IMG/VR virus record: IMGVR_UViG_3300037882_003336
Span: 1-64,000 of that record
Length of the DNA stretch: 64,000 nt
Source: a virus
Strand: one strand, 5' to 3'
Both the position numbers and the translations under genes were made by a program. The notes beneath the pieces were generated by a model. That model searched no databases. It was given only the letters and a program-made list of their open reading frames with translations, and had not been told where the DNA came from. Below, piece after piece: positions 643-61,704 of this stretch. Every line of letters begins with the position of its first letter. The first letter of the stretch is position 1.

Positions 643-1032
643 CTATGAAATTCGTAGTGGGGTGATGTCTAAAACTGGAATACTGCTGGTGATGCCAGCA
701 CGCTTGGCCTTGGCGATGAAGTGGTGACCGTCCACCACGTGGTCATTGATCAGTAGCACATACTTCTCGCCGTTTTTGATGGACGACCTAACCGCGTCAC
801 CGCACTTCTTCTCGCATTCGTCCTTGACTGCCTTCACGGCGGTCTTGAGGTTCTCAGGATCGGCCTTGCTGATGAGTTCCGGCAACACGATACCATACTG
901 GATAACAGTGCCAGTCTCATCAGAAAACTGAGCAACATCCTGCCGAACCGACTTCGGCAGATCCTTTACCCGAACGTCGCCGATATAGGCGGACTCATCG
1001 AGCCTTGAGAGAATTCTACGGGAAAGACGCAC
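643..1032 (-). CDS. ParB/Srx-like small protein with putative capsid-targeting leader
   Basis: VVDGHH motif followed by A..AG...IPV; N-terminus MRLSRRILSRLDES. Confidence 0.55.
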   Translation of the reverse strand: MRLSRRILSRLDESAYIGDVRVKDLPKSVRQDVAQFSDETGTVIQYGIVLPELISKADPENLKTAVKAVKDECEKKCGDAVRSSIKNGEKYVLLINDHVVDGHHFIAKAKRAGITSSIPVLDITPLRIS

Positions 1033-1052
1033 CCTAAAGATAGTGGATACAG

Positions 1053-1081
1053 AGACGCCGCACCTTGTGAGTGCGGCGTCT
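1053..1081 (-). terminator. Hairpin, probable terminator
   Basis: 11-bp stem AGACGCCGCAC/GTGCGGCGTCT downstream of 1102..1674; weak U-tract. Confidence 0.6.
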
Positions 1082-1101
1082 AAGGAAGGTCAGGCGACGT
1101 G

Positions 1102-1674
1102 TTACGCGCCGATCACGAAGTAGAGGAACGCGGTCGCCTTACCACCGGTCAGAGCGGCAGTTGCGGTCGTGAATGTGATCTGACGGGCGGCAGTCAAGAC
1201 GATCGAAGTCGACTCGGGCGTGTTGGCCTTTGGCGTGATCGCTTTCCGGCCAGTGGTCGACCAGGGCGCACCACCAAACGCAGCAGCCGCGATAATGTCG
1301 TCGGCGGCGTTGATGCTGACCGCGACAGTGGCAGATCCGCCGCTGGCCAAAGCGGTGTTGACTTGAACGAAACCACCCACGATGATCGCATTGATTGGGA
1401 TGACCGGGCCGACGACGTGGGCGGCGATGGTGCGCTGGGCGGTATTGGCGGTCGGGTCGAAGGTACCACGAGCGACTTGCAGTCCGGCAGCACCATCGGC
1501 AGCACCATCGGTACCTTCAGCCAGAAGACCGTAGGCTTCAAGGGCGGCACGAACACTGGCGGTGGCGGCTGGGCGAACGACCGGAGTGGTGCCGAAGAAC
1601 CCGAGCTTCGCAGCCGTGGTTTGGCCAATCTTGATGCCGTTGACGTTGTGGGAGGAAATGATGTTGGTCTTCAT
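1102..1674 (-). CDS. Putative virion (head decoration-like) protein
   Basis: Ala/Gly/Thr-rich beta protein with KLGFFGTTPV motif and its own terminator; start moved to MKTNII. Confidence 0.5.
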   Translation of the reverse strand: MKTNIISSHNVNGIKIGQTTAAKLGFFGTTPVVRPAATASVRAALEAYGLLAEGTDGAADGAAGLQVARGTFDPTANTAQRTIAAHVVGPVIPINAIIVGGFVQVNTALASGGSATVAVSINAADDIIAAAAFGGAPWSTTGRKAITPKANTPESTSIVLTAARQITFTTATAALTGGKATAFLYFVIGA

Positions 1675-1735
1675 GGAGTGTGGTAATGAGTGATGAACCC
1701 TGCCAAGACATTCAGCAGTTACCAATAGCTAGTCG

Positions 1736-2539: not shown

Positions 2540-2554
2540 AGGTTCAAGAGAAAG

Positions 2555-3400
2555 TCATCGCTTGTCCTTCCGCTGCTCTTGGCGCTGCTTGTGTTGCTCG
2601 ACGAACTTCTTCGCAAATTCGGTGATAGTCTTGGCACCGTATTGCTTGAGCAGTTTCTCCCACCTTTCCCAATACCCACGCACTGCGATACCCTTGTGAG
2701 ACCGCATGTTGTGCACGTCTGCACCCATTTGGGTGATGAAGTCGCTGTGGTAGTATAGCAGGCGGCGGTACCATGGTTCCGTACGGATCTTAGCACCGCT
2801 CTCCAGGAACTTCAATAGGTCGTCCATACGGACCAACTCCCTCTCACCCCGCTCGAAGTGATGCGGGGGGTTGGCCTGTTCGGGAACCCCCTTCATGAAC
2901 TCTTCCGGTGTCTTAGCACGCCGGGTGTCCAGTAGCTCGTAAGCCTTCTGATTGTCGTACATGTAGACGGGGAACTCCGAGATAAGCGTGAGGTTTTCGA
3001 AGTCGTCCCGTCTTCCCTGTTCGAAGTATTTGACGTGGACCGCCTTAATGTACTGGCGGAATCCACGAATAGCGGGCTTGGCGGAGAACAGGCGTTCCTC
3101 TGATTCAGTCTCACCACCCCATCCCCAGTAGTCAACGGGGCGAAGCTTGTAGCGTTGACGGAGTTTGTCCCAGTCCACCACGATCGTCACCGAACTCCCC
3201 TTCCGGTATCGGTTGTTGGGGACGCGGCTGAACGAGATGAAGAACCCCTCGTCGCCGTGCCTGATTTCCGAATCCCCGCGACCGTAGCTCAGTTCGAACA
3301 GGTCGTCCGCCACGATCTTCCACAACGCCCGGAGCGAGGTGACATGGTAAAGCTCACCATGGGACTCAAGGAGCGTTTGAAGGGTGGCGGAAAGACTCAC
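2555..3400 (-). CDS. Putative internal head protein with possible ADP-ribosyltransferase fold
   Basis: Leader MSLSATLQTLLES; motifs LYHVT, ISFSR and ESEE in ART-like order. Confidence 0.45.
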   Translation of the reverse strand: MSLSATLQTLLESHGELYHVTSLRALWKIVADDLFELSYGRGDSEIRHGDEGFFISFSRVPNNRYRKGSSVTIVVDWDKLRQRYKLRPVDYWGWGGETESEERLFSAKPAIRGFRQYIKAVHVKYFEQGRRDDFENLTLISEFPVYMYDNQKAYELLDTRRAKTPEEFMKGVPEQANPPHHFERGERELVRMDDLLKFLESGAKIRTEPWYRRLLYYHSDFITQMGADVHNMRSHKGIAVRGYWERWEKLLKQYGAKTITEFAKKFVEQHKQRQEQRKDKR

Positions 3401-3402
3401 CC

Positions 3403-3840
3403 CTAAACGTACTTCTCAGCGGTCCTGCCGTAGAACGTAAACCCGCCCTCCTTCTCCACCATCGCTTTCGAGACATCCGAAACCACTTCCAGCGAAATCT
3501 TCTCAGCCCCACAGCTGGTCGCCTCTGCGATACCCGCGTCGAACAGCATCCGACCGATACCTTTCCCCTGATAGGCTGGATCGACGACAATGTCGAACGA
3601 GAAGGTTGACCCACCGTCCCGGACACCACCAAACCAAGCCCCCACCACATCGTTTGCGGAAAACTCCGTGTGATCATCGTGGTTTACCCGGACAACCGCC
3701 CCCATGAGTTCCTTGTCGCTCAGGATGTTGATGGACGACTCTTCCGCAATCGCCCATGCCCCGTCCATGATTTCCTGGTCCTCAGTGTCAGCCCACTGAC
3801 ACGAAGCGAGTGCTTCCAGTAAGGACCGTGTCAGGCTCAT
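3403..3840 (-). CDS. GNAT acetyltransferase with putative capsid-targeting leader
   Basis: Motif A VVDPAYQGKGIGRML; leader MSLTRSLLEA. Confidence 0.85.
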   Translation of the reverse strand: MSLTRSLLEALASCQWADTEDQEIMDGAWAIAEESSINILSDKELMGAVVRVNHDDHTEFSANDVVGAWFGGVRDGGSTFSFDIVVDPAYQGKGIGRMLFDAGIAEATSCGAEKISLEVVSDVSKAMVEKEGGFTFYGRTAEKYV

Positions 3841-3842
3841 AC

Positions 3843-4145: not shown

Positions 4146-4164
4146 GGGTAAGTGGTGAGAGTGC

Positions 4165-4500: not shown

Positions 4501-4508
4501 CGTGATAG

Positions 4509-5000: not shown

Positions 5001-5024
5001 GTGGCAAGTTGGTTCGATACCGAC

Positions 5025-5878: not shown

Positions 5879-5883
5879 TCCGT

Positions 5884-8429: not shown

Positions 8430-9074
8430 GTGGCGTCCAAGGAACTAGATGCGATTCACGCGGCTCGGAAACACTTCGCGTTGAAAACGAAGGTGTTGGA
8501 GGCATATGGCGGGAAATGCGAATGCGGCGTGGACGACTTGATTTTGCTGACCGTCGATCACGTGCTGGATGACGGACACGAGCACCGGAGGCAGCTGGGG
8601 AAGGGTGCAACTGGGTATGGACTGTACCGTGATCTTGTTAGGAACGGGTTTCCAGACATCGTGCAGTGCATGTGCTGGAACTGCCAAATCAGGAAGCTCC
8701 GGAAGATGCTGAGGCGTGAAGACGAGTCAACACTAACAAGGGCTGGGAGGTCGTTTCGGAAGTTGAAACGTGAAGTGATGGCGGCTTACGGAAATGTGTG
8801 TTCGATATGCGAAACAAACGACCTTAACGTAATGACCTTGGACCATACAAATGGCGGTGGAAAAGCTCATCGTCGAATTTCCACGCCAATTGCCTACATC
8901 CACGCCAGAAGAGACGGATTCCCTCCTGAATACAGGTTACTTTGTGCCAACTGCAACGCACGTGAGGGGTTCAAAAGACTGGTCCGGAAGTATGGCGACC
9001 TTTGGCCCAAACACAGAACCGCCGCACCCGTTCCCGAGTGCGGCGGCGAAACTGCGGCTGACTCGCTGGATTAG
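8430..9074 (+). CDS. Free-standing HNH-family endonuclease with two tandem domains
   Basis: Two copies of AYG..C..C...LT.DH...G..H...C.NC. Confidence 0.8.
   Translation: MASKELDAIHAARKHFALKTKVLEAYGGKCECGVDDLILLTVDHVLDDGHEHRRQLGKGATGYGLYRDLVRNGFPDIVQCMCWNCQIRKLRKMLRREDESTLTRAGRSFRKLKREVMAAYGNVCSICETNDLNVMTLDHTNGGGKAHRRISTPIAYIHARRDGFPPEYRLLCANCNAREGFKRLVRKYGDLWPKHRTAAPVPECGGETAADSLD
9019..9046 (-). terminator. Terminator after the major capsid gene
   Basis: Stem CCGCCGCAC/GTGCGGCGG followed by TTCTGTGTTT on the minus strand. Confidence 0.7.
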
Positions 9075-10519
9075 ACCTGCGAGAACTGGTTGCCGTAATT
9101 GGTGATCTTGGTCAGGGCGTACATGCCCGAATTGATCATCTTTTTCCCGTAGGAGCTTGCGAAGCCCTTGCGGCTGAAGAAGTCGTCGAGCGTGACGACA
9201 GGGGTCGAGAAGCTCAGGAGCCACGGGGCGAAGATCAGGCCAGCGCGCACCAGATCGTTGCCTTTGTAGCCCAGGAGACCTTCGTCAACCGGGAAGTGAG
9301 GATCGCTGTACACCTTGAGGTGACCGAGCTTGCCGAGGTAGGCAACCCCTTCGATTTCCGCGCTGTCGCCAGCGGGTTCGAAGTTCGGGAGCGATTCCAC
9401 GATGTTTTGAGCCGCCATGCCGCACATGTACCAGTTGGCACGGGCGCGGTTCGTCGCACGTTGGATGTAAGACGAGCCCTGGATGAGCGCGTCAACGTAC
9501 GAGTATTTGTGCTCGACGTATCCGACGTATTGACCGGCTGGCACGTCGTTATCCCACGTCACCATACCAGCGGTGGCTCCGGTACGGGCGGTCTCGATGA
9601 GTTCCCGATCGATGCTCCACTGCAGTTCGTTGGTGACGGCGGTGCTCAGCAGGTTCTCGGCGTTGACCGAGTGCAGGGCTTCCATGATCCGGGCCGATTC
9701 CATCGACCAACGGATGCGGTGTTTCCGCTCTTGGCAGATGATCTGCGAAGATTGGATTTCCACGTCCATCAGCTGGGCTTCGGTGTTGGTTTCCGGATTG
9801 TAGTTGTAGCTGGCCACCACAGGAACGGAGTTGCTGGTGGTGTTGAGCGCCACCGCACCGTTGTTGTAGTTGATCGATCCAACGGGGTTGTTGGAGCCGT
9901 CAACGATGACGCCGTTGCCGTTGTCGGTCACGAGGACCGGGGTGCCGGATGGGTCGAGGGTGATCGAAACCGAACCGGGGATGACGGGGAACCACGCCAG
10001 CGATGTCGAGGCGATGTCACCGGATACGTCGGTCGTACCGATCGACTCTTCGTGGACGGTGTTGGCACCGTCGTTCATGCGGTCAGCGTGACCGGTCCGG
10101 GCGTCCCACACCTTGGCACCAGCGGGGGTCGATCCCTTCGCCATGCCGGTGATGAAGTTCATGTAGAACACGAGACCCTGAGGACCGTCGAGCGGCTGGG
10201 TGGTGAACAAGTCTGCGGCGACGAGGTTTTCCGAGACGATCGACAGGACCGGGAAGGCCCATTTGTCGAAGGTGCCGACGTTCATCGACGTGGTCGCTTC
10301 GTTGAACTTGCTGAGGTCGGAAACGCGTTTCCGGTAGTTCTCCAGCATGGTGGCCATGAAGGCACGGCGATTTGGGTCAGTGACGCCATCGCAGTATTCC
10401 TTCCAGCCTTTGGCTTCCGACAGGCGACCGCCCTTGGCGAGTCCCATCGGGGTTTCCGAGAGAAGCAGGCCACGACGAATCGTTTCGGCGAGCTTGGTGG
10501 TGTCAATCGAGGAGTGCAT
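9071..10519 (-). CDS. Major capsid protein, T4 gp23-like
   Basis: A.MLEN, QPL.GPQGLVFYM, RWSME...ALH..NAE..L.....EL...IDRE, GYKG....AGLIFAP and KGF.S.YG; adjacent to the prohead protease gene. Confidence 0.95.
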   Translation of the reverse strand: MHSSIDTTKLAETIRRGLLLSETPMGLAKGGRLSEAKGWKEYCDGVTDPNRRAFMATMLENYRKRVSDLSKFNEATTSMNVGTFDKWAFPVLSIVSENLVAADLFTTQPLDGPQGLVFYMNFITGMAKGSTPAGAKVWDARTGHADRMNDGANTVHEESIGTTDVSGDIASTSLAWFPVIPGSVSITLDPSGTPVLVTDNGNGVIVDGSNNPVGSINYNNGAVALNTTSNSVPVVASYNYNPETNTEAQLMDVEIQSSQIICQERKHRIRWSMESARIMEALHSVNAENLLSTAVTNELQWSIDRELIETARTGATAGMVTWDNDVPAGQYVGYVEHKYSYVDALIQGSSYIQRATNRARANWYMCGMAAQNIVESLPNFEPAGDSAEIEGVAYLGKLGHLKVYSDPHFPVDEGLLGYKGNDLVRAGLIFAPWLLSFSTPVVTLDDFFSRKGFASSYGKKMINSGMYALTKITNYGNQFSQV

Positions 10520-10564: not shown

Positions 10565-12703
10565 TTACAGCCTGCGGGCGCGACGCACCATCGACAGGGA
10601 TTCGTGGAGTGCCCCTTCTTCCGCCGTTGGCGGGGTACTGACGGGCGCTTTCGGTTGATCAGCCGCCTTGGGGGGCGTCTGGTTGCTGGATTCCTCCAGC
10701 TTACGCTTGTTGGTGGCTTCGACGTCCTCTTGAACGAGGGTCTTGACCTTGGCCTGGAACGCCTTGAACGACTTACACTCGGTGAGCGTGGCGGCGTGGG
10801 CTTTGTGGAAGGCTGGGTTGGTGGCTTCGAGCAGTTGCAGGCTCAAATCCTTCATGTCCTTGTTGTACATCTCGGCGAGATGCTTCGCGGCCTTTTCGTA
10901 TTCGGCGGTCTGTTCGGTCGCCTCGTTGATTTTGGCCTTGCGGGATTCGGTGACGTTCGTGCGAAGCTTCTCGTACCGACCGAGCAGGCGGGTCGCGGCG
11001 ACGTTGAGCTTTTTGTGCTCCAAGCGCAGGTTGCGGAGAGCCCGCTTGGCCTGAGCTTCGGTCATCGGAGGAAGCGGAGGCGCTTCGGCAGCGGCGGCGT
11101 CATCACCTTCGGCTGCACCACCACCAGCGGCGATGGCTTCATCGTCCAGGGTAGCAGCGAGTTCGGCGATTTCCGGGTCATCACCGCCCAGTTCGCGCAG
11201 CTTATCGGCGGCGGAAGTAAGGGTATCGGCGAGGGCGCTTGGCTCTTCTGGAGCAACGTCATCAACCGGAGGTGCAACGTCGGCTGGAGGTGCACCAGCG
11301 TCATCGGCGGCGGGTGGGAAGTCGGATTCGTTCAGCGCCTTGCGGAAGTCCTTGATAATCACTTGGACTTCTTCGTTGATAGCGCTCAGCGAAGGGTCTT
11401 CACCGAGAAGCCCTTGGGCTTCAACGGACAGCGTGTCGGATTCGCTCAGGGCTCCGGCACGAATGGCGAGGCTGGAACCCTTCACGGGGGTGGCAGCGAG
11501 ACGGAGTGCGCGGGTGCGGACCGCCGTCATTTCAGCGAGTTTGCTCATCTTCTTAGTAGGTGTTGGTGGTGGCGTTGATGGTGGGGTGGCGGGTTGATCA
11601 GGAGACTTTGCAGCCTCCGTGATCTGGCGGGGTTTGAACCCCTTCCCGCCAGACTTTTTCAGAGCAAGCTGGATGAGTTCGTGCTCAGCCAAGGCGCTAT
11701 TGCTCGCGAGGACTTCGGTCGTGGTGTCTCCTTCCACGAGTTTTCCGACAGTCCCAAAATCGTTGGATTCAACGGTCATGACGAGACCGGATTCAGTTTC
11801 AACGCGGTCGCCCTTGTCAAACGCTTCCATGAACGCTTGGACTGGGTGCGAAATCCGGAACCCGCCGAGTTCGACGGCAGCGCGGACGAACGTACAGTCT
11901 TTTTTGGACTCCGTAAATACCATGTGGGCGCGCTCCAAGGCGGCACGTTCGGTGAGGTCACCAGACACCAAGACTGGGACGGTATATTCGGCGTTGTCCT
12001 TGCGGTAGTGGACGATGACGCGGGCGGTTCCTTCGGGAAGCGGATGAGCCTCCTGAACCAGTTCCTTGCCATCCACGAGATCACGGATGGACTCCTGAAT
12101 GGAGCGACCGTCGACGACGTTTTCAACGAGCCGGGGAATGGCACGGGAGACGGACGGATTGTAAACCGCGTCCCAAGTGTCGAGTTCAAAGTCGTGCGAT
12201 TCAACGACCAAACCCTGTGGGGTCTTCATGACGGAGCCCGAACCGCGACTGGAAACGCCCCAGCGCAGCGAAGGGGTGAGCGCCTTCAGCACCTGACCGT
12301 GCGGAGTGTCGAAGATTTCCAATTTCCCCAAGATGTCACCTTCAATCAGATGGGCGGTGGGGTTGGGGTTGCGCTTGGATTCGTAAATCTCGCGCTCCGA
12401 TGCCTGACGGGCTTCAATGATCCGGTGGCTGACCAGGGATAGGCGGGTAATGCCGTCGTCCGGGTGTTCCAAATGTCCGCCGACCCGTGAGTCGCGAACT
12501 CGCTTGGTCCAGTCGGAGCTTTCTGAAAGGACACGGTCCCAAAGGGCTTTGGGATAGATCCGGCCATTTTGGTTGCGCTGGATGGAGTTTTGAAACACCC
12601 CTTCCATCACCATGTTTCCGTTCACCGTCTCTCTCGTGTCCTGCATAGGACGCGTCGGAGACTTCAGAGCGGCTTCTTTTTCAGTCAGGAGTTCGCGTGG
12701 CAT
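10565..12703 (-). CDS. Prohead protease (T4 gp21-like) fused to a scaffold/core region
   Basis: GVFQ....NQNGRIYP, GHLEHP, VSH, TPHG, GVSSRGSGS and WDAV.NPS; helical C-terminal region with many xxE(S/A) sites. Confidence 0.9.
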   Translation of the reverse strand: MPRELLTEKEAALKSPTRPMQDTRETVNGNMVMEGVFQNSIQRNQNGRIYPKALWDRVLSESSDWTKRVRDSRVGGHLEHPDDGITRLSLVSHRIIEARQASEREIYESKRNPNPTAHLIEGDILGKLEIFDTPHGQVLKALTPSLRWGVSSRGSGSVMKTPQGLVVESHDFELDTWDAVYNPSVSRAIPRLVENVVDGRSIQESIRDLVDGKELVQEAHPLPEGTARVIVHYRKDNAEYTVPVLVSGDLTERAALERAHMVFTESKKDCTFVRAAVELGGFRISHPVQAFMEAFDKGDRVETESGLVMTVESNDFGTVGKLVEGDTTTEVLASNSALAEHELIQLALKKSGGKGFKPRQITEAAKSPDQPATPPSTPPPTPTKKMSKLAEMTAVRTRALRLAATPVKGSSLAIRAGALSESDTLSVEAQGLLGEDPSLSAINEEVQVIIKDFRKALNESDFPPAADDAGAPPADVAPPVDDVAPEEPSALADTLTSAADKLRELGGDDPEIAELAATLDDEAIAAGGGAAEGDDAAAAEAPPLPPMTEAQAKRALRNLRLEHKKLNVAATRLLGRYEKLRTNVTESRKAKINEATEQTAEYEKAAKHLAEMYNKDMKDLSLQLLEATNPAFHKAHAATLTECKSFKAFQAKVKTLVQEDVEATNKRKLEESSNQTPPKAADQPKAPVSTPPTAEEGALHESLSMVRRARRL

Positions 12704-16108: not shown

Positions 16109-18016
16109 CTAGATTCCCCACTTAGCGGCGGCGCGAGCAAAGAGATCTTCCAAGGTAGCCGCTGATAGCGCCACTCCCCAAATTGCCACCTCTCCCATGT
16201 GGCCTTCGAAACCACTCCCGATCGAAAAAGTGCCAGATCCGGACGCCATGTTGTCGGAAAATGTCCCAGTAGCCACCGAAACCCCGTCCTGATAAACCAC
16301 CAAGTCGTTCCCGTTCCTCACCAAAAACCACACGGTCCACGTGGTGACATCGGCGATTGTATCGGTGACCCTACCACCACTCGCCACGTCACCACAATCC
16401 ACGTTCAGATCACCGGCAACGTACGGATAAAAGTTGAATTCTTCCACCCCGTTGTCAAACGAGTAGATTACACCAGCGCCCGCGTCCCGTTTTGCCACCA
16501 CCATGGCAGTAAAGTTGGTGGTAACTGCCCAAGTGCCGACGTTTTGGGATGCCAAATTCAGAATATCGGTTCCACCGAAGTATAAAGCACTAAGGCCATT
16601 CCGTTCGGCAACCTGCAGGGTGGGGCGGTCACCAACGGTGGGTTGGGTTGGAGATCTGGAGTTGCCGGAAAGATCGGTCCACGTTTCCACGGTGCTACCA
16701 TCGGAGCCGGTCAGCACAGATGCGTCCAACCACAATTCCAGCCCAACTGTGGCGGTCAACGCCAGAGGACCAACGTTGCAGAACAGCCCCATTTGGATGT
16801 CACCAGACGCGATAGACGCCGACGGGATTTTGGCCGACCCCTTTCCCGTATAGGCTCCACTGAACACGAACAGGTTGTTAGTCTCCGGGTGGGTCACCAC
16901 CTCACCAATTGGCAAATAAGAACCAGCGTTCCCGATGTTCGGAATCAGCGGGGAGCCATCTTGTATCACCACCGGATTCAGGGTGAGCGGTTTAGTAGTG
17001 CTTCTGGTCGCCGCTCGCTTACCGTACAGGTTGAACCCCACCATGTCGGTTTCCAGGTTCACATCCTCAAAGACCGGAATATCGAACCTTGCTAGTCCAC
17101 CGAGAGGACCACGAGCCGCTTTCACATCGAGCGGGGATGAAAGAGCGTCTACGAGAGTTGAAGCCCCAGATCCAACAGCTGTCCACCCGTCTGCTGTTTC
17201 GTTGGAAATCGCCACCCTTTCCCCATATGGTCTCCCAGCTGGAAATGCGGCATCATCGAACAGCACGTTGTCAATTTGATTAGCCGCATAAGCGTTGGTG
17301 GCGTTGTCGAATATGGGCGGACCGAAGTAGATGTACGGAGCGGACGCTAGTACGGTGGTAGCAACCGTGTTCTGCCCGGTGTAAGAAGCGGACTGCGCGA
17401 TGCCGTCCACCGATGCCTCTATGAGCCCGGTAGCCGCATCGAGTTTCACGTGCACCTTCAGGAAGTGCCACGTAAACGTGGTAACGTTAGTGATTGTGAT
17501 GGTGGCAACCTCTGTCGCCACGTTTCTGATCGACAGCACCACTGTCCAAAGCGGAGCCGCATAGGTGGTAGACTGAGCACGGATCGATACATCACCCCAT
17601 TTGAAGATTTGTGCGTAATCGGCGGTAGGCTCGTACGAAGAGGCCAGGTCGGAAGTAGGGAGACCAAACCTCATGTCCATCGTCATCCATACTTCCCCGC
17701 CTATTCCGAATACGCTTCTCACCATTGCCAGCTGTTGAGCCTTGGCGGTTACCCAGGATGCCCTGGTCGGGCTGGAGCCAGAGGTGTATGGGGACGCCCC
17801 CGCTGCCCCATAGCAACTGCTTTTAGGGCTCCTCCCACCCCTGAATACAGTGCTTGTAGAATTTGGGTGGCTGGGCGGGCCGGTAGATGCAGTGGCCGTT
17901 GCTACACCGTTGTTGTGATATACACCGATCGGTTTCAACCACGAAGCCCACGTGGTCGGAGCAGTAGTGTTGGCGTCCGTAGAGACGTCAAAGTCGATGA
18001 ACAGTTTTACAGCCAT
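16109..18016 (-). CDS. Putative tail fibre/appendage protein, paralog 3, with C-terminal LamG/ConA-like module
   Basis: N-terminal region shared with the two upstream genes; WLDAS...KWG module. Confidence 0.7.
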   Translation of the reverse strand: MAVKLFIDFDVSTDANTTAPTTWASWLKPIGVYHNNGVATATASTGPPSHPNSTSTVFRGGRSPKSSCYGAAGASPYTSGSSPTRASWVTAKAQQLAMVRSVFGIGGEVWMTMDMRFGLPTSDLASSYEPTADYAQIFKWGDVSIRAQSTTYAAPLWTVVLSIRNVATEVATITITNVTTFTWHFLKVHVKLDAATGLIEASVDGIAQSASYTGQNTVATTVLASAPYIYFGPPIFDNATNAYAANQIDNVLFDDAAFPAGRPYGERVAISNETADGWTAVGSGASTLVDALSSPLDVKAARGPLGGLARFDIPVFEDVNLETDMVGFNLYGKRAATRSTTKPLTLNPVVIQDGSPLIPNIGNAGSYLPIGEVVTHPETNNLFVFSGAYTGKGSAKIPSASIASGDIQMGLFCNVGPLALTATVGLELWLDASVLTGSDGSTVETWTDLSGNSRSPTQPTVGDRPTLQVAERNGLSALYFGGTDILNLASQNVGTWAVTTNFTAMVVAKRDAGAGVIYSFDNGVEEFNFYPYVAGDLNVDCGDVASGGRVTDTIADVTTWTVWFLVRNGNDLVVYQDGVSVATGTFSDNMASGSGTFSIGSGFEGHMGEVAIWGVALSAATLEDLFARAAAKWGI

Positions 18017-18020
18017 CCCC

Positions 18021-44235: not shown

Positions 44236-44456
44236 AACGGTGTGCCCAGATTGTTCGACTCATCTTCGTCTTTCGCCAAGGCGATAGCGGAACTCACCTG
44301 TTCCTGAAGATCCGCTTCCCCGTCGTCCATTTGCACCCGCGTTCCATCGGGTCTGACCGCCTCAACGGACGCTGAGTCCTTTTCCACCGATATCACGATG
44401 GACCATCCATCCACGAGCACCTCGGCAGCTTTGTTGACGGTCTCTTCCAGTGTCAT
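44211..44456 (-). CDS. Hypothetical protein
   Basis: ATGA overlap with purB. Confidence 0.55.
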   Translation of the reverse strand: MTLEETVNKAAEVLVDGWSIVISVEKDSASVEAVRPDGTRVQMDDGEADLQEQVSSAIALAKDEDESNNLGTPLWKIFGKP

Positions 44457-47496: not shown

Positions 47497-48729
47497 CTAC
47501 TCGTGACTGGCGTTAATGAACATCTTTTTGATCCAGATGGTCTTGATCTGCAGTCGCCCCTGCCCATACCGCTGCCTGCGCAGATGCCCGCGCCTCCAGT
47601 GCATCCTGACACTTCCACCACTTCCTTCACTATCACTGCCGGAGGACCGATAGTTGCGTCCGATAAAGTTCGGGCTCCACAGTTCGTCGACACGCTTTTT
47701 ATGACGCTTAATGCCACCTGCCCTTGAAATGAACGACGGTTCGATGAGTTCCGGGCAGGCGTGCATGATAAGGATCAACTGCATCGCAAGGTAGCAAAAC
47801 CCGGTCTGGTCGGTGATGTTGTTGTGTTTCCTGACCTCCATGCTGCCGAATTGGGTCTTGGGCATGAAGTGAGAAGCAACGTGGAGGTTGCTGCCCTCGA
47901 ATGAAATGAACACCATGAACCCGTCGGCTGGAACGTCGTCGAGCACCATTGGGGCCAGCTTTAGTTCAGTCTCGACATCCAGTCGCTTGATTGCCTCTTC
48001 GGTGGCATGCGGGAGTGGGTAGACGTCAGGAGAGACGTGGCGACCCGGCTCGACCCGAATAACGGTGAGCGCGGTCACGCGAGTCTCCCTACCTCCGCTC
48101 ATCGCCACGCACTCCGGAGGCATTACGAACATCATCGCTTCGTGTGGCCATGGGGTCTCGGCAATGTCCTCACCCTTTGGCAGATCGGTAGCGATGGCAT
48201 CCTTGTAGAACTCACTCGACACGTAAAACACAGGGGTGTCAGTGCGTGCCGCGATCCCGGTAGCGGCCAGCGTGATCATGCGCATTGCGTGATCCTCGTC
48301 ATTCTTTGGCAGGTGGTATGCACGCTGCAGGAACATGTGCGCCACCCCACGGATCGAGACAGCAGGGTTGATGTATCCCCACACGTTCCGGTAATTCCGC
48401 GTCAACATCTTCCTAGACACGTGATCGACGATGTCGAGCAACATCCGGTTGGACATCCGGTCCACATCCTCATCCTCATGAGTGGTCTCAAGCCCAAGCA
48501 GCTTTTTTAGCAGCGTGATAGTGTATTCCTTGCCTTTGAGTTCCGAGACCGCCTTGGTCTGGGCCAACTTGAAGATACTGTGGAACAGATGCTTTGGGAC
48601 CATGGACTTGGCCTTCTCCATGAACTCATCGGGTGTCATCACCTGCCCAGCAGACTCCATGAGCAGGGAGGATACAGCGTCCACGTACTTGGCGGTGGAC
48701 ATCTGTTGACGGAGAGCGGACTTGGCCAT
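47497..48729 (-). CDS. Hypothetical protein with C-terminal HWRRGHxR motif
   Basis: SVRMHWRRGHLRRQ..G.GR....IWIK; N-terminal LLMES. Confidence 0.7.
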   Translation of the reverse strand: MAKSALRQQMSTAKYVDAVSSLLMESAGQVMTPDEFMEKAKSMVPKHLFHSIFKLAQTKAVSELKGKEYTITLLKKLLGLETTHEDEDVDRMSNRMLLDIVDHVSRKMLTRNYRNVWGYINPAVSIRGVAHMFLQRAYHLPKNDEDHAMRMITLAATGIAARTDTPVFYVSSEFYKDAIATDLPKGEDIAETPWPHEAMMFVMPPECVAMSGGRETRVTALTVIRVEPGRHVSPDVYPLPHATEEAIKRLDVETELKLAPMVLDDVPADGFMVFISFEGSNLHVASHFMPKTQFGSMEVRKHNNITDQTGFCYLAMQLILIMHACPELIEPSFISRAGGIKRHKKRVDELWSPNFIGRNYRSSGSDSEGSGGSVRMHWRRGHLRRQRYGQGRLQIKTIWIKKMFINASHE

Positions 48730-51145: not shown

Positions 51146-52414
51146 TTATAGGGTGGAAGCGTGGTCTGTCTCGGGAGACCAGTTGAAGAGCACGTGCTCT
51201 TCACCACAGTAAACGTCCGAATCGGCCATGAACTTAGTAAGGCTTTTTCCGTGCTCGTGTGCTGCTTTTGGGTCTCCGTTCAGGTAGTTGAGGAACGTTA
51301 GGAACATAAATACACCACCCGGTGCGTTGTTCAGTCTCACGAAATCCCGCCATGCGATTTCGCTCATGGTCGCGATGCGGCGTGGGAGCTTGGTGAGAGT
51401 TGTGATTTCGCTCGGCACGTCCCAGCCAGCGTAAGACCGGATTTCGTCCCATGTGAGTTCGGTCTGGTCAGTTTCCCAACCCCCGCTAGACCCTTCGACC
51501 ACTTGGATTTCGTCGCCTCTACCGTCGGCGCGGAGTGCGTCGATTTCGACTTGGGTCAGAAACGCCCCGTTGTGGAGGTATCGGTTGCTGGCAATGCGAA
51601 TTGGGAAGGTCCGGTTGACGCCAACGACCGAATTGAGCAACGCGGGGGCCACACAGGTCTCGCTGAGGAATGAAGCCACCGAAGTGGACCGGCTCGTGCA
51701 GTACGGGTAGTGCGGGCCGTAATTGGAAAGCTGAAAGCCCTGTGACCCGTCGAGCAGCGCCCCGTTGTAACAATTGGCGATGGTTTCGTTGATGTCACCG
51801 CGTGGCTGCGCGTACTCCCACACCGCATTCACATCACGAGCCATGGTGGCCCTCCGAAGCGCACGTTTGGCGCGGGCGGCTCCGGAGCCGGACCCGGTGG
51901 TGCCAGTGCGAGACAATGCCAAGTCCCGGTCAGCGATGGGCTTTCCGTTGAAGTCGTGGGTTCCGTTCTCCAATCCTTCGTCCTCTGGCGTGACGATCGC
52001 GGCCAGAGGGTGAATGAAAAGGTGGGTGCGGGGAACTTCCAGCATTTCCACTTCTTTCTTCAGGTCTTCCGGCTTGAACGCCGCGCCCGGTCCAATGAAG
52101 ATGTAGGGGCGATAGTCCTGATAGCCCCAATAAAACGCACCGGCTGGAAGCACCTTCACCACCCCGCTTCGGCTCACCGAAGAATCGGTAACGGTGTGGC
52201 TAGAATTCCGCGAGTTGGCGGTCAATAGCACCCCCGGTCGCCCAATCTTGGCGAGCAAGGCGCTTGCACACCCCTTGGCCTCAGAACCGGTCTGAGCACC
52301 CATGACCACTGAAACCCGGTTCGGCTTGAAGATGTTCTTGACGAGCCCATCTCGCTCAAAGAGCCTCTGGTTGTCATTGAAGTGTCTGGACCAAGCTTTG
52401 GGATCGTACGTCAT
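51146..52414 (-). CDS. purZ: Adenylosuccinate synthetase paralog, PurZ-type (N6-succino-2-amino-2'-deoxyadenylate synthase)
   Basis: GAQTGSEAKG (Ser at the PurA Asp13 position), NSSHT, GTTGSG.G, GSQGF.L, YPYCTSR, RTFPIR, TTLTKLPRR and TFLNYL. Confidence 0.8.
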   Translation of the reverse strand: MTYDPKAWSRHFNDNQRLFERDGLVKNIFKPNRVSVVMGAQTGSEAKGCASALLAKIGRPGVLLTANSRNSSHTVTDSSVSRSGVVKVLPAGAFYWGYQDYRPYIFIGPGAAFKPEDLKKEVEMLEVPRTHLFIHPLAAIVTPEDEGLENGTHDFNGKPIADRDLALSRTGTTGSGSGAARAKRALRRATMARDVNAVWEYAQPRGDINETIANCYNGALLDGSQGFQLSNYGPHYPYCTSRSTSVASFLSETCVAPALLNSVVGVNRTFPIRIASNRYLHNGAFLTQVEIDALRADGRGDEIQVVEGSSGGWETDQTELTWDEIRSYAGWDVPSEITTLTKLPRRIATMSEIAWRDFVRLNNAPGGVFMFLTFLNYLNGDPKAAHEHGKSLTKFMADSDVYCGEEHVLFNWSPETDHASTL

Positions 52415-54462: not shown

Positions 54463-57400
54463 TCATACCACCGTGAGCTTTTCCAAGTCGACTTGCGCAG
54501 CCTCTCCCCTCATCGTCGTGATGTGGGCTTTCCCGTCTTTGTAGTGGTAGATGAAGCCCTTGGTGGACTTTTTATCCCCCCACTTCACAAGCTCACTTCC
54601 ATCAATCGCTGGTTTCATGGCCGACTTGGCTGGAAGGGTGTTGCCGTTGCTGAGCGTGATGTACGGACCCATCACGGTGACGACGAGCGCCAGTTTCTTG
54701 TCCGCTATCGCGTAAGCAACGTCGCCGATTTCGAACGGGTTATCCTTGCTTGGATTAGTTGGGTTGCCGTGACCGTAGGCGGCAAACATCTTGGTGACCT
54801 TATTGACTTGGGCAAGCTCGTCATCGCCCATGAGGTTGGAGACATCCGGAGTTGGCGACGCTTTTTCCAGCGCATATGCCGGTACCATGAACACCGCTGG
54901 GGTACCAGCGTCGGAAGACTTCGGAATGTGTACAACGCATTGAGCCACATTGAAGTCGTCGTCGACCAGTGTCAACAAGACCTTTCCGGTGGCTGTTGGT
55001 GCCAGCCCGAACTTGAATGAACCATCAGGATAGTCCGACACCTTGGTACCCTCGGGAATGACAACGGAGTCCCCAATCACCCAGTCACCTTCGGTACCCC
55101 AAGCCGAACGGGCTGGCGCGAACTTCACCGCACTATCCAGGTTGAAGATCATCGACTCACCCTTGTTGATAGTGTCATTACCAACTTTCCCACTGAGCAT
55201 TTTGACAATCACATGATCGCTCTCCACAGTCTCTATCGCGCCCCTCGCATCCACCTTCCCACCGTATTCGGTCCCGTCCTCGTCGCCGTCTGTGTACTCA
55301 CCCTTGATGGTGACGGGTGACCCAGGCACCATGTAATAAACGGGTGCTTTGATACTGGCAATGTCTTTGAGCTTGCTGATGCTGTTGTCGGTCTTCGGGT
55401 TGTCACCGGGCTTTTTGATCTGGGCAACACTCACCAAGTGATAGGTGCTGTCCTTGGTGAGTGATGGGATGTAAACGACGCACGAAGCCACGTCGAACGT
55501 GTGAGGGTCAACCAACGTCAGTGCGACAGTGGCTTTGAGGTCCTTCTCGATCTCCACGTGAGCGTTCGTGCCGTATCCGAAAATCGTGCTACCGCTCTTC
55601 ACGATGACCTTATCACCAATCTTTAGGTCATCTGGCTTGATCTGCCATGACTCCATGGCGATCTTCTTGAACGCCACGACCTTTCCGGGATCAAAGTTGT
55701 CAAACCCCGTAGTGTTCGAGAAGATCTTGACGTCGGCGGCGTCTGCCGTCATGGTCGTGATCATACCGAGCACCTCCCCGGTTGGAACCTTTATGCGGAC
55801 CGGGCTGGCAGTGCGGAGGAATGACACGTCGTTCTTGAGTTGGTACTCCAGTTTCTCGTGGTACCCATCATTGAAGTCAACGTCCGTGTAGGAGGACACC
55901 GCCATCATGTTCTGGATTGTCTCTCCGACCGCTTTTTCGATCGCGTCTTCATGCTCGTCGAAGAGCTTTTTAGCCAGCTGCCTGACCTTTACCGCCAAGT
56001 TGTTCGGGGAACTCGCGAACCCAAATGCAGCCAGTTCGTCGTCCCACGCTTGTTGCGACATGCTCGCCTTCGAGTATGGGTAAGCTTTGTACAACTCCCT
56101 CATGTAGTCGACTGCTGCCTCTGTGGCTTTGGTAAGCTCCGACTTATTGTCCTGTGCCCCCGTGGAGAGGTCTATTGAGTTTACATCAACTTCACTCAGG
56201 TCAATTTTCCCATCGGCGTGCTCCGTTGTAATGAACACCTTTCCTTCATGGGCAACATCAGAGTCGTCCATGATTGTTACCTCGGTCCCGTCATGAAGTT
56301 TCGCCTTCACGGGTAGCTTCACTGTTGTCAGAATGACATCGGGCTTCACGATTCCAGAGGTAACTCCAGAGATGGGAAGGTGAACCACGATCTGCACAGA
56401 ACCGTTGTTAAGTTTGGAGTTCACCCACGCCAGGGTCTTTTCCTCTTCTCCATCGTGTTTCCACCACGGGTCCTTGCCATCTTCTGCGTTTCCGACAACT
56501 ACAAGTGACTTGGCAGCGAGTGCAGGCGCTGCTGTGAATGCTGGTGCTGTGGCACCCTTGGTGCCAGTGACTGCACCAAGGTTCTTATCGGGGACTGGCT
56601 CCGGAATTGGCTTGCCGGATGCATAAGCGGCGGCACGCACGATCTTCTTGGCTTGGCTGGAACACTTGGGGAGCAGCGTTCCAACGTTTTCCACACTCGC
56701 TTTCATGTCGAGTGCCTTTTTGAGCCACCCGTATCCACCACCGATCGCATATCGCTTGACCTTGTTGAATACGGTTCCGGTGTTGTGCTGAAGGTCGTAA
56801 ACATGGTCAATGGCAACCGCCCGTTCCCGGCTGTTTTTGGCGGAGTTCAGCCGCAACCACCCATCCGTGATGCCCTTCCACGCCCTGCCACCGTAGGAAC
56901 TGCTCCAACTTCCCTTGTCGTAACAGATACCCGCGTACTGGACAAAAGCGGCATCCGTCCAGTTCATCTCCTTCATGGTGCGCCTGACCGCATCAACTGC
57001 AGCGCTGTAGTCAGGTGATGAACCACCCTTTTCCTCGGGTGGGCGTTCAAACCGTGGCATGTTACCGGGCGAGGAAACACGGCGCACCAACTTGCGCGTG
57101 AAGCTGACCTGTTCCTTGGTCAGTTCGTTCACCAACGCCGACTGTGGTCTGTCCGACAGGTGGCGCATTTCAGCACAGATCGAAATGAACGTGGCGTCCA
57201 GCAATTCCCGCTGAAGGTTGGGTAAGAGGGTCTCAAATGCAGCCCGTATGTCGTCCTTGATGTTGGAGCGGCCAAAGAAGCTCGCCGTTTGTCTCCCCAT
57301 CATATCGGTACCGGGCGCTTGCCCCTCGTCCGGAAGACCGGAGGAGAAGGCCCAGGAGAGTGCATAGAAGTCAAACAAGGAGACTTCGGGGTTTGATGGG

Positions 57401-57471
57401 GAGGTGTAGTTCAAAGCTTCTCCCAACAGAGAACCCCTCATTGCCTTGTTAATTGACTCCAGTAGCGGCAT
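54463..57471 (-). CDS. Large (about 1000 aa) putative internal head protein
   Basis: Leader MPLLES...LLGEA; YGG.AW...IDH..DLQHNTG domain followed by repeated IGD.V small beta domains. Confidence 0.65.
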   Translation of the reverse strand: MPLLESINKAMRGSLLGEALNYTSPSNPEVSLFDFYALSWAFSSGLPDEGQAPGTDMMGRQTASFFGRSNIKDDIRAAFETLLPNLQRELLDATFISICAEMRHLSDRPQSALVNELTKEQVSFTRKLVRRVSSPGNMPRFERPPEEKGGSSPDYSAAVDAVRRTMKEMNWTDAAFVQYAGICYDKGSWSSSYGGRAWKGITDGWLRLNSAKNSRERAVAIDHVYDLQHNTGTVFNKVKRYAIGGGYGWLKKALDMKASVENVGTLLPKCSSQAKKIVRAAAYASGKPIPEPVPDKNLGAVTGTKGATAPAFTAAPALAAKSLVVVGNAEDGKDPWWKHDGEEEKTLAWVNSKLNNGSVQIVVHLPISGVTSGIVKPDVILTTVKLPVKAKLHDGTEVTIMDDSDVAHEGKVFITTEHADGKIDLSEVDVNSIDLSTGAQDNKSELTKATEAAVDYMRELYKAYPYSKASMSQQAWDDELAAFGFASSPNNLAVKVRQLAKKLFDEHEDAIEKAVGETIQNMMAVSSYTDVDFNDGYHEKLEYQLKNDVSFLRTASPVRIKVPTGEVLGMITTMTADAADVKIFSNTTGFDNFDPGKVVAFKKIAMESWQIKPDDLKIGDKVIVKSGSTIFGYGTNAHVEIEKDLKATVALTLVDPHTFDVASCVVYIPSLTKDSTYHLVSVAQIKKPGDNPKTDNSISKLKDIASIKAPVYYMVPGSPVTIKGEYTDGDEDGTEYGGKVDARGAIETVESDHVIVKMLSGKVGNDTINKGESMIFNLDSAVKFAPARSAWGTEGDWVIGDSVVIPEGTKVSDYPDGSFKFGLAPTATGKVLLTLVDDDFNVAQCVVHIPKSSDAGTPAVFMVPAYALEKASPTPDVSNLMGDDELAQVNKVTKMFAAYGHGNPTNPSKDNPFEIGDVAYAIADKKLALVVTVMGPYITLSNGNTLPAKSAMKPAIDGSELVKWGDKKSTKGFIYHYKDGKAHITTMRGEAAQVDLEKLTVV

Positions 57472-57491
57472 CACGAAACTTAGGTTTTATT

Positions 57492-59357: not shown

Positions 59358-59409
59358 GTGGGTTCTAGTTATAATGGCAAGGTTACACCACCAAGAACAC
59401 CAAGAAACC

Positions 59410-59916
59410 ATGAAAAACACCATTATCGCTAACACGGGACTCGTTATCCCACGCCGCCGATTCCTCCAGGGTGCTGGTATGGCAATGGCATCGGTCGCAT
59501 TGGGCGGGATCGCATCCGCCACAGGCGGTTCCTCCGCTGGTTATGCTGGACACCCGCTCTGGTACAAACGGAACTCGTGGATCGAATGGAACAGCGACAT
59601 CGTAGACCTCGACGATGCTGTCGCCAATGGAGAAGCGGCACTCGCCTTCTTCCAAGCCAACCCACCCGTGATGTCGTGGAAAGAAGAGGGGTGCCAACGG
59701 GTGTTTCACCCATTCGCCACTGGAGCTAGTTCCAGCCGCGTCATCTCCCAACCCGGCAGCATTTCGTACAGAGAGGTGGGCGGGTGCTACCAGTACGGCA
59801 TTATGTTCAACGCCATCAAGTTCTTCAAGAAACCTGATGGCAGCTCTGGTAGTGAGCTGCCCCCAGGAGCGGACTTCGACACCCTGTTCAACAACTGGTC
59901 TACTTGGAACCAGTAA
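59410..59916 (+). CDS. Twin-arginine (TAT) exported protein
   Basis: PRRRFLQG followed by a hydrophobic segment and ASA. Confidence 0.65.
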   Translation: MKNTIIANTGLVIPRRRFLQGAGMAMASVALGGIASATGGSSAGYAGHPLWYKRNSWIEWNSDIVDLDDAVANGEAALAFFQANPPVMSWKEEGCQRVFHPFATGASSSRVISQPGSISYREVGGCYQYGIMFNAIKFFKKPDGSSGSELPPGADFDTLFNNWSTWNQ

Positions 59917-60712
59917 ACAGGTGGTCGTATCTTCCTCCCGGTTTGTAGTTTAGATGCCAGTCTTGACGGGTGATTGGGGGAGCGCTGGACTGGCTAGAGA
60001 AACGGTAAGCTTTGGCGGTTATTTCGTCGATCAGCCTCTGCCGTTTCTCGGGGTCTTTTTCCTTGGCCACTCTGTCGTTTGCATCAGCCTGTGGCGGTTC
60101 TTGAAGGATAGACAGAGAGTGCGACTTGGCTCCGTTTGGGTCATCGGGGTTGTCAACCTCGCTCAGGAACAGGCTGGTACGGTAATAGCCAAAGGTGCCA
60201 ATCTCAACGGGATTCCTGCCGACCATCATCGCCATAATGTCGCCGCGTTCATTACCTAGGACGCCCGAGAACTCTTCCTTCATTTGGTCGAACCTCTCTT
60301 TCCCGCCGCTCTCCCAGTATGACGACACCACAATTGTCTCCCCGCGATCGTCCTGCACGGTGAACCGGTTTTTGAGTTCCAATTCCTTCATATCCGAGAT
60401 CACCTTGGAGATTTCTGCCTCGCATCGTTCCTCTTCATCTGGTGAAAGCTTCAGGAAGTCCTTCAAGCTTTCGCTAAGTCCCCCATTCTTGTAACCGCCA
60501 ATCAAGATTCGGAGCAGAGACGCCCGGTCCAGCTTCACGGAGGTGAGGTTCTCGGCGACCAGCTTTGGTTGAACCACTGGGGCGGGAGTCGGTACTGCCA
60601 CTGACCGCACCACCTCTTTGAACACCACTTTTTCCTCTGGCTTCCGAAACAACAGGACCACCACCAATACAGCCATCAACGTGCTGACTGCGATAAGGAG
60701 TTTCTTCATCAA
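59900..60712 (-). CDS. Membrane-anchored hypothetical protein
   Basis: N-terminal TM helix. Confidence 0.65.
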   Translation of the reverse strand: MMKKLLIAVSTLMAVLVVVLLFRKPEEKVVFKEVVRSVAVPTPAPVVQPKLVAENLTSVKLDRASLLRILIGGYKNGGLSESLKDFLKLSPDEEERCEAEISKVISDMKELELKNRFTVQDDRGETIVVSSYWESGGKERFDQMKEEFSGVLGNERGDIMAMMVGRNPVEIGTFGYYRTSLFLSEVDNPDDPNGAKSHSLSILQEPPQADANDRVAKEKDPEKRQRLIDEITAKAYRFSSQSSAPPITRQDWHLNYKPGGRYDHLFTGSK

Positions 60713-60727
60713 GTGCCAGAAAACGCA

Positions 60728-61099
60728 CTAACGAGTAGGAGTCACCCACGCCGGACGCCCAGTAAACCACCCGTGCCAAATCGCATGAGGCGGCTTGAGT
60801 TTGAAGCTCACCTCTTCGAAGATTTCGTCCAGCTGCTCACTGGATAATTTCTCGTCCACCGTCACGATGTTCCAGTCGTGTAGGTAAGCGCCACCAAAAT
60901 CGCGATGGTCGTTATCGCGTCCGAAGACGACTGCGTGACTCTCCCCATTTCCTTTGCGGAACTTGAACCGGTTGTCGATCTTGATGAACAAAGTCTCAGG
61001 TCCAGTTTCTTCACCATTCCGAGTCGCCGTCTCAAACTTGCGTTTGAATTCTTCCCCGAACTCCCGCAACGATTCGGTGATTTTGGTGGCAACACTCAT
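60728..61099 (-). CDS. Hypothetical protein (putative internal head protein)
   Basis: Leader MSVATKITES. Confidence 0.6.
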   Translation of the reverse strand: MSVATKITESLREFGEEFKRKFETATRNGEETGPETLFIKIDNRFKFRKGNGESHAVVFGRDNDHRDFGGAYLHDWNIVTVDEKLSSEQLDEIFEEVSFKLKPPHAIWHGWFTGRPAWVTPTR

Positions 61100-61227
61100 C
61101 TAAGAGACGTTTTCTTTTGAAGTTGACGCCCGGTCTGTAAGGATCATCACGAGGTCAATAACCACACCTAACACAATTGGTGGAGTTATCGGATACCACC
61201 CTCGGGAACCCTTCACCGGGCGTCTGC

Positions 61228-61704
61228 TTATCTCGGTGACTGGGCGTTGACGCGATCGCGATACCGCTGAGCCCGTGTTGGTGCCCATCGGTAGGTTGAG
61301 TCGTCAACGAGATAACGGAGGGTAGACAACTCGTGGTTGGCGATGAGGGACAGCGCTGCCCCAGCGTGCTTGAAGTCCCCCGCCCGAATCAACTCCCCAA
61401 TCTTGTTCAGGCTCGCCGTAATGTACTCGATGCCAAGTTCTACCAGTGCCGGTATTTCCTCGGGTTTGGCGCTCATGGCTTCCATGGCGCTTGGCCAGCC
61501 AGCCGGACGCACCACCGCGTTAAACACGGTATCCTGGTTGGTGGGCTCGCGGCGTCGCGTTTTTTGGGCAAGAATGGCCCCCTTCAGCTTGAACAGAGAC
61601 GAAGCTGTCTCCTTCCACCTTTTTGCCTGCAAGTTGGAAATAGCCTCGTCAACCAAGCTAATGGCTTCGGAAGACTCAAGCATGATCCTTTCGTAAAGCT
61701 TCAT
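61228..61704 (-). CDS. Hypothetical protein (putative internal head protein)
   Basis: Leader MKLYERIMLES. Confidence 0.6.
   Translation of the reverse strand: MKLYERIMLESSEAISLVDEAISNLQAKRWKETASSLFKLKGAILAQKTRRREPTNQDTVFNAVVRPAGWPSAMEAMSAKPEEIPALVELGIEYITASLNKIGELIRAGDFKHAGAALSLIANHELSTLRYLVDDSTYRWAPTRAQRYRDRVNAQSPR

Follow-up and report, generated by a model that had tools for sequence, protein, structure and literature searches.

Why do some 15 otherwise unrelated proteins, encoded on one stretch of phage DNA, begin with variants of the same short peptide? The stretch, referred to here as the window, is the first 64 kb (64,000 nucleotides) of the 78,666-bp viral contig IMGVR_UViG_3300037882_003336, and the peptide is a leader that ends in a hydrophobic residue, any residue and Glu, as a rule followed by Ser or Ala. 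The original prediction proposed that this leader is a portable address, which loads a diverse set of injected effector proteins into the phage head. Our analysis leads us to consider it probable, on balance, that the leaders are capsid-targeting propeptides in the style of bacteriophage T4, cut after the Glu by the phage's S77 protease and borne by an unusually large and variable cargo.

All 15 N-termini on which the proposal was built are present in the sequence, on the minus strand and at the open reading frames listed in Table 1, two of them (643–1032 and 2555–3400) requiring GTG starts. The contig carries four further leaders of this form past the end of the window (66558–66938, 74067–74507, 75493–76596 and 78264–78617), giving the set of 19 to which the counts below refer. 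The 19 leaders are 5–25 residues long. Aligned on the Glu, they carry Glu at P1 without exception, Leu or Ile at P3 in 16 (Leu, Ile, Val or Met in 18, Lys in the remaining one), Leu or Thr at P2, Ser or Ala at P1', frequent Lys or Arg at P4 and a hydrophobic residue at P7. The leader is probably a short helical peptide; in AlphaFold models of two of the proteins (75493–76596 and 54463–57471) it forms a helix of its own, modelled with low confidence, in front of the folded domain.

The level at which this resemblance is maintained can be read from the mature parts and from the codons. When the 19 proteins were compared after removal of their first 25 residues, a single pair was similar at the cut-off of E < 0.01 (33187–33555 and 78264–78617, E = 1e-6), while different genes specify the Leu, Glu and Ser of the motif with different codons, leading us to reject a signal at the RNA level. 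Unrelated mature parts and differing codons thus indicate that the constraint acts on the peptide, and is due neither to RNA nor to paralogy.

Enrichment of the motif at N-termini, to be expected if the leader is real, was borne out both by motif counts and by a scan that was given no motif. Under three start rules, 14 of 104 genes have [LIVM]xE[SA] within their N-terminal 21 residues, compared with 4.8% of internal windows (p~1e-3); with a gene call restricted to the first ATG, [LIVMF][LIVMFT]E[SATG] is found at 15 of 95 N-termini versus 3.5% of internal windows (p = 1e-6). In the unguided scan, which compared N-terminal with internal 4-mers in a reduced alphabet, the pattern hhEs (hydrophobic-hydrophobic-Glu-small) ranked first among 102 (n = 12, 5.1-fold, p = 7.4e-6). 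In leave-one-out scoring with a position matrix, 15 of the 19 leaders surpassed the 99th percentile reached by internal windows, the weak scorers including 33920–35989, 38880–39317 and 47497–48729; in the last of these the Glu is residue 25 counted from the first ATG and residue 16 from the second in-frame Met. The leader genes also tend to stand in tandem, with 8 adjacent pairs where 3.3 are expected (p = 0.005); 38880–39317, for example, is the third of three consecutive leader genes downstream of the tail tube gene (40103–40669). The leader is absent from the known non-head proteins of the contig, namely the tail tube, the fibres, the PurZ-like enzyme and the AAA protein.

Homologues in metagenomes allowed the junction itself to be followed through three cargo families, in which the junction Leu, the junction Glu or both are retained while the remainder of the leader drifts. 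The four homologues of 2555–3400 (50–68% identity) have leaders of 12–26 residues that vary in sequence and length, the only invariant positions being Leu at P3 and Glu at P1, right before the mature start G-x-L-Y-H-x-T. Nearly all of the 13 homologues of 75493–76596, which lies outside the window (33–42% identity), start with M-R-Y-x-E-I-I-E-M or a similar sequence; Met1 and Glu8 are at least 90% conserved, and a linker of variable length leads to Y-H-G-T. The third family, that of 54463–57471, is far larger, with 768 homologues at E < 1e-3. Among 77 of the top 150 homologues, those with a conserved D-F-Y core near the N-terminus, [LIVMF]xE lies upstream of the core in 74, compared with 31 of 77 control windows of equal size; the motif stands 13–16 residues before the core in 56 of the 74, with Leu at P3 in 52. 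Glu18 of the protein itself (S-L-L-G-E followed by A) is at least 90% conserved, and one homologue starts with a leader of the MIKLRDLLKE type.

A candidate for the enzyme that cuts at these junctions is encoded by 10565–12703, directly upstream of the gene for a gp23-type major capsid protein (9071–10519). Its protein matches the prohead protease families PF03420 (E = 1.4e-9, above the cut-off) and phrog_207 (E = 4e-24), and BLASTP aligns it with T4 gp21 at 29% identity (E = 6e-10). H80 (E-H-P) aligns with T4 H85 (N-H85-P) and S151 (GVSSRG) with T4 S140 (GVS140SRG); H80, S151 and D178 are kept in 37–38 of 38 homologues. The protease carries a similar N-terminus of its own, MPRELLTE followed by K, and the proteases of relatives have one to three such sites ahead of the conserved domain start G-V-F-Q-N.

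The original prediction had described a scaffold dense in the same motif. Its seven scaffold motifs were all recovered and the density is real, but the scaffold is not a separate protein: it is the C-terminal part of the protease polypeptide. The 712-residue protein holds 15 [LIVM]xE[SA] sites where 2.4 are expected (p = 4e-8), nine of them in the C-terminal part, which is rich in Ala, Glu, Leu and Lys. The fusion is conserved across the phage family, in 34 relatives with polypeptides of 547–712 residues, and the median site density of their C-terminal parts is 1.57 per 100 residues, 3.6-fold the background of 0.43, as would be expected of a scaffold that is chopped up, like T4 gp22. Both motifs claimed for the capsid N-terminus, LSEA and FNEA, are present, and the candidate propeptide sites there are LAE12, LSE22, LSE35 before A and FNE74 before A. 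In 29 homologues E74 is invariant, mostly as L-D-E followed by A, T or S, and A36, at least 90% conserved, opens the conserved sequence A-K-G-W, mostly after [LI]-x-E. Dense scaffold sites and conserved propeptide sites lend indirect support to an L/I-x-E cutting rule for this protease.

These head genes also place the contig. Its gp23-type capsid protein and S77 protease, together with relatives of 208–230 kb that have a T4-type portal, identify it by sequence as a fragment of an uncultured phage of the T4 superfamily with a genome of roughly 200 kb; CheckV estimates its completeness at 39%. The relatives of that size are five IMG/VR records, two of which have terminal repeats, and capsid homologues of 35–74% identity occur on metagenomic contigs of up to ~240 kb. 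No cultured phage exceeds ~33% identity to the capsid protein, and an exact capsid-peptide search of IMG/VR returned no close relative. The genomic context of homologues was taken from IMG/VR loci and from three relatives, G001, G002 and G003, which were fetched whole and treated with one gene call.

Comparison with the relatives revealed that the leaders are written in dialects. G001 (208 kb) favours M-x-x-S-F-x-x-L-F-E-[STAG], LFE[SATG] occurring 10 times at N-termini and 5 times internally (14.6-fold, p = 5e-7); one of the five internal occurrences is in the scaffold part and another follows an internal Met that is probably the true start. G002 (211 kb) uses [VI]-x-x-L-L-E-[AST], with 6 N-terminal and 5 internal LLE[SATG] (11.5-fold), and the present contig (79 kb) uses LLE and ITE forms, with 9 N-terminal and 7 internal occurrences of either before [SATG] (13-fold). 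As these patterns were picked after inspection of the data, their p-values are descriptive only. No dialect is enriched in the wrong genome: N-terminal LFE is absent from the contig, and N-terminal ITE from G001 and G002. Near the capsid genes of 51 relatives, a crude count of [LIVM]xE[SA] gave no overall enrichment (8.0% versus 7.6%), and hhEs, with homologues collapsed, was modestly enriched (4.7% versus 2.6%, p = 0.003); the signal in relatives is clear only when each genome's own dialect is used. A genome-specific consensus on unrelated proteins suggests that the dialects co-evolve with a phage-specific partner.

What the leaders are attached to is in part recognisable. Among the functions named in the original prediction, the GNAT acetyltransferase (3403–3840) stands, whereas SWIM and ParB-like domains are without Pfam support in the window (no match at E <= 0.01) and an ADP-ribosyltransferase (ART) assignment for 2555–3400 could not be confirmed: it began as a weak language-model lead, and was set aside when profile-profile comparison with an ART family proved not significant. 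A better case lies outside the window, where the predicted structure of 75493–76596 (predicted local distance difference test, pLDDT, 70.5) has the ART fold; its top Foldseek matches are nearly all ADP-ribosyltransferase catalytic domains (best match E = 1.5e-3, probability 1.0), and His16, Tyr64 and Glu107 are conserved. Leader proteins of G001 include an InPase (PF18823, E = 3e-50) and a PcfJ-like domain, and one of G002 has a 2H phosphoesterase domain with a faint match to the anti-CBASS protein Acb1, making it a candidate packaged counter-defence enzyme.

Two large leader proteins deserve separate mention. The all-alpha domain of 54463–57471 (residues ~20–300) is modelled by AlphaFold2 with a pLDDT of 84 and a predicted template modelling score of 0.81, the predicted cut falling in a low-confidence linker. 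Nothing similar was found in Pfam or the PDB, and only four unnamed viral models matched. The domain is N-terminal in most homologues and internal in giants of 1,900–3,500 residues, and in almost all cases a leader that ends in h-x-E precedes it. The other protein, 33920–35989, qualifies the idea that the whole set consists of injected effectors, an idea to which the GNAT enzyme conforms: in relatives its gene is located in the head module, and it is not clearly an effector. Its orthologue in two loci (L004 and L005) starts MQVHH(R/Q)L(S/K)E, retaining H-x-L-x-E. A role as the portal was rejected, as it has no match in the PDB or Pfam and the relatives have a T4-type portal elsewhere; a T4-type portal was not found on this contig.

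The closest precedent is T4 itself, in which the capsid-targeting sequences of IPI, IPII, IPIII and Alt, cut by gp21, are likewise ~10-residue leaders ending in L/I-x-Glu on otherwise unrelated proteins. T4 internal proteins are diverse and have the targeting sequence alone in common (PMC3012670); the first 10 residues of IPIII are enough for packaging, T4 propeptides measure 7–65 residues, and gp21 has an N-terminal LIE-9 (PMC9026906). The N-termini in the T4 record (Alt MELITE, gp24 MAKINELLRE, gp67 MEGLIE, gp68 MLLIPE, gp21 MNEPQLLIE, gp22 MLKEQLIAE) have the same form as MLANLITE, MSLISKITE, MSVATKITE, MPLLE and MPRELLTE here. Protease family (S77) and capsid family (gp23) are the same in both phages, both proteases bear an N-terminal L-x-E, and in both the cargo set is highly variable; Alt, packaged and cut by gp21, has an ART fold that parallels cargo 75493–76596. 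The differences are as informative. The leader here, S-L-x-x-[KR]-[IL]-[LT]-E, is not that of T4; protease and scaffold, encoded in T4 by the separate genes 21 and 22, form one polypeptide; and T4 internal proteins are basic, whereas the cargo here is not uniformly so. T4 has a handful of tagged proteins, compared with at least 19 in 39% of a genome. Since the contig covers only ~39% of a ~200-kb genome, the fair yardstick is large phages with many processed head proteins, and not T4 alone.

In such phages, including the giants phiKZ, 201phi2-1 and SPN3US (proteases gp175 and gp245), a protease related to gp21 cleaves numerous proteins of the head and inner body after Glu, and many of those processed proteins are ejected into the host (PMC9026906, PMC5694885). 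The phiKZ type follows a different rule, S/A-x-E, with mostly long propeptides (PMC9026906, PMC5694885): these proteases prefer a small residue at P3 (S/A/G-x-E or A-x-E), and the majority of propeptides are longer than 100 residues, in contrast to the short leaders here, none of which has S, A or G at P3 (0 of 19). A further comparison is offered by polyvalent proteins, since ART, InPase, GNAT, ParB, PcfJ and 2H phosphoesterase are among the domains assigned to proteins predicted to be injected with DNA (Iyer et al. 2017, PMC5512222). The repertoire overlaps with that found here, ParB-like weakly; the architecture differs, polyvalent proteins combining many domains per polypeptide (2–15 disparate ones), whereas here most leader proteins are separate, 100–160 residues long and of at most one domain, each with its own leader. 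Only 75493–76596 may combine two, the ART fold and a C-terminal end for which there is a weak ParB-like lead.

Taken with the T4 precedent, these features suggest how the leaders would act. During head assembly, each leader would tether its protein to the scaffolding core made of the protease-scaffold fusion. Once the gp23-type shell had closed, the gp21-type serine protease would cleave after the Glu and release the mature protein inside the head, the same protease chopping the scaffold tail at many identical sites and removing the capsid propeptide. The freed proteins, some of them enzymes, would probably exit with the DNA at infection. All predictions of targeting and cleavage that sequence could test came out as expected. 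We infer cleavage most directly; targeting lies a step further from the data, and injection and effector roles further still. The mechanism as such is already known from T4; what is distinctive here is its scale, the lineage-specific dialects and the protease-scaffold fusion.

The alternative that survives best, although we regard it as unlikely, is that the leaders serve cleavage only: they would be propeptides, removed by the protease, that keep enzymes latent, or aid their folding, up to head maturation, with targeting residing elsewhere, for example in the mature domains. Conservation is indeed strongest at P3, P1 and P1', the cleavage positions; ahead of P3, the leaders of the 2555–3400 family are variable throughout, in length as well as in sequence; and in T4 the residues that matter in targeting (4 and 7) are distinct from those that matter in processing (8 and 10) (PMC9026906). 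Cleavage alone, however, leaves the additional conservation at P7 and P4 unaccounted for, as it does the extension of the dialects past P3–P1, to F at P6–P7 in G001 and V/I at P7–P8 in G002, and a protease in a closed prohead meets only substrates that are already inside.

Somewhat less likely again, in our estimate, is that the proteins are loaded and trimmed but never injected, being minor core, scaffold or head-internal structural proteins that are retained or degraded. The position of 33920–35989 within the head module of relatives fits this explanation, as do the small size and obscure function of most of the proteins and the similar N-termini of the T4 core proteins gp67 and gp68. It sits poorly with the enzymes among the cargo (GNAT, ART fold, InPase, 2H phosphoesterase) and with a very fast turnover between relatives, which suits accessory, host-directed proteins better than structural ones. 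We think it quite improbable that the leader is addressed to some other machinery, as a degradation signal for the AAA+ protein 62166–63830 or as a peptide recognised by a modifying enzyme or by a secretion route. The contig does encode that AAA+ protein, matching phrog_29662, but no radical-SAM gene was found on the contig (39% complete), the leaders are too short and too polar for Sec or Tat signals, and it would go unexplained why the motif coincides with the S77 cutting rule and is met again in the scaffold and the capsid propeptide. The remaining explanation, that a degenerate and short motif was singled out by eye among many open reading frames, through chance and the way in which the reader chose start codons, is very improbable: the loose motif has a background of ~5% per 21-residue window, two members depend on GTG starts and several score weakly, but the enrichment survives three start rules and the unguided scan, the junction is conserved in independent metagenomic homologues, relatives have parallel dialects and the leader genes cluster in tandem.

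Several observations count against T4-style targeting and cleavage as we propose it. The motif is short, 3–5 of the 19 leaders score weakly, and the metabolic PurB-like lyase 44453–45688 carries VSES by chance. Relatives with the same protease have far fewer leaders, the share of leader genes falling from 15.8% in the contig to 8% in G001, 6.5% in G002 and 3.8% in G003; in G003 the identical pipeline found no significant enrichment (11 of 286, p = 0.24), a null result which also implies that the pipeline is not biased towards a positive and does not generate the signal by itself. In the three complete relatives, homologues exist for just 2 of the 19 leader proteins and are without a clear leader; for 47497–48729 the alignment with its homologues in G001 and G002 starts only at residue 155. 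The mature parts are not basic, unlike T4 internal proteins, with a median pI of 5.9 that equals that of other proteins. The leader gene 39668–40057 stands directly behind a host-type promoter box, suggesting early rather than late expression. Finally, most of the cargo is without recognisable function, there is no close cultured relative, and the reading rests on sequence.

A bolder proposal, which we hold to be possible but doubtful, is that each lineage of these ~200-kb phages of the T4 superfamily has its own address dialect, which co-evolves with the protease-scaffold and loads enzymes and counter-defence proteins by the dozen, each of them tagged separately and rapidly exchanged. The polyvalent repertoire would then be split into modular, re-addressable cargo, and the widespread all-alpha domain, with its 768 homologues, would be a common head-cargo module. 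Short portable tags of this kind are in use in T4 for packaging foreign proteins. Should the leaders function as we propose, the proteins that this phage delivers with its DNA could be recognised by a simple rule of sequence. Those proteins would make up the initial wave of host takeover and counter-defence; most of them have no assigned function so far, and the rule would yield a short list that merits testing. The dialects would provide a natural data set on a packaging signal co-evolving with protease and scaffold, and a testable role would be attached to a large family of proteins, so far unannotated, that occurs in hundreds of phages from metagenomes.

Table 1. Leader genes and other features of the window, with one leader gene of a relative. 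A slash marks the predicted cut after Glu; aa, amino acids; scores are leave-one-out position-matrix scores.
Feature	Position	Strand	Leader or box	Score	Remarks
Leader protein, 129 aa	643–1032	−	GTG start, MRLSRRILSRLDE/S	11.0	No Pfam match
Leader protein, 281 aa	2555–3400	−	GTG start, MSLSATLQTLLE/S		Mature part opens with conserved G-x-LYH-x-T
Leader protein, 145 aa, GNAT acetyltransferase	3403–3840	−	MSLTRSLLE/A	12.9	Pfam PF00583, E = 1.5e-10
Leader protein, 100 aa	3843–4145	−	MSKAQELAETLLE/S	16.6	
Leader protein, 111 aa	4165–4500	−	MSTLAEKLLE/S	14.4	
Leader protein, 122 aa	33187–33555	−	MSTLAQKLLE/A	17.8	
Leader protein, 120 aa	33561–33923	−	MKLHERITQVVVE/S	5.8	Borderline
Protein, 689 aa	33920–35989	−	MLLLEDNVKIRHRLVE/S	1.9	Weak; sole match phrog_18980 (unknown function)
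Leader protein, 145 aa	38880–39317	−	MSNLTKRIEE/T ... PLTE/A	3.2	Weak
Leader protein, 113 aa	39324–39665	−	MSLISKITE/T	9.2	
Leader protein, 129 aa	39668–40057	−	MSLTTRITE/E	11.5	TATAGT box 6 nt before ATG
Protein, 410 aa	47497–48729	−	...VSSLLME/S	3.6	Weak
Protein, 1002 aa	54463–57471	−	MPLLE/S ... SLLGE18/A		Then uncharacterised all-alpha domain (~20–300)
Leader protein, 123 aa	60728–61099	−	MSVATKITE/S	16.2	
Leader protein, 158 aa	61228–61704	−	MKLYERIMLE/S	6.1	
Possible extra member, 83 aa	5627–5878	−	MTTQPTIE/A	6.0	>99th percentile of internal windows; absent from the original prediction
Major capsid protein, T4 gp23 type	9071–10519	−			Pfam PF07068, E = 1.5e-37
Prohead protease with scaffold-like C-terminal part, 712 aa	10565–12703	−			Peptidase S77, T4 gp21-like (residues ~30–200); C-terminal part ~470 aa
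Fibre-like paralogues, three, and adjoining 2692-aa protein	16109–21460 and 21468–29546	−			Paralogues with common N-terminus M-x-x-K-L-x-x-D-F-D; Laminin_G domains in two of them
Lyase, PurB-like	44453–45688	−			Pfam PF00206
Adenylosuccinate-synthetase-like gene	51146–52414	−			Pfam PF00709
AAA+ protein, 554 aa	62166–63830	−			phrog_29662 'ATP-dependent protease', E = 3e-85
Extended -10 boxes	Just upstream of starts 5878, 7336, 7728, 32525, 40057, 49826, 54427, and 66183 on the contig		TGTGTTATAAT or TGTTATAGT		End 5–7 nt before ATG
Leader protein of G002	L113:14163–15473	+	MTPFGLARSLLE/A		2H phosphoesterase domain

The remaining features of the contig concern its layout and expression. The minus strand carries nearly all of the genes, which are without Shine-Dalgarno sites. 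The extended -10 boxes end so close to the ATG that leaderless mRNAs transcribed from host-type promoters are implied. A lookup of sequencing runs listed no RNA run as containing words of the contig, and one aquatic metagenome contains 28% of the words sampled from it. The fibre-like paralogues adjoin a 2692-residue protein with Laminin_G_3 and CBM_5_12 domains, and they and this neighbour are probably receptor-binding proteins.

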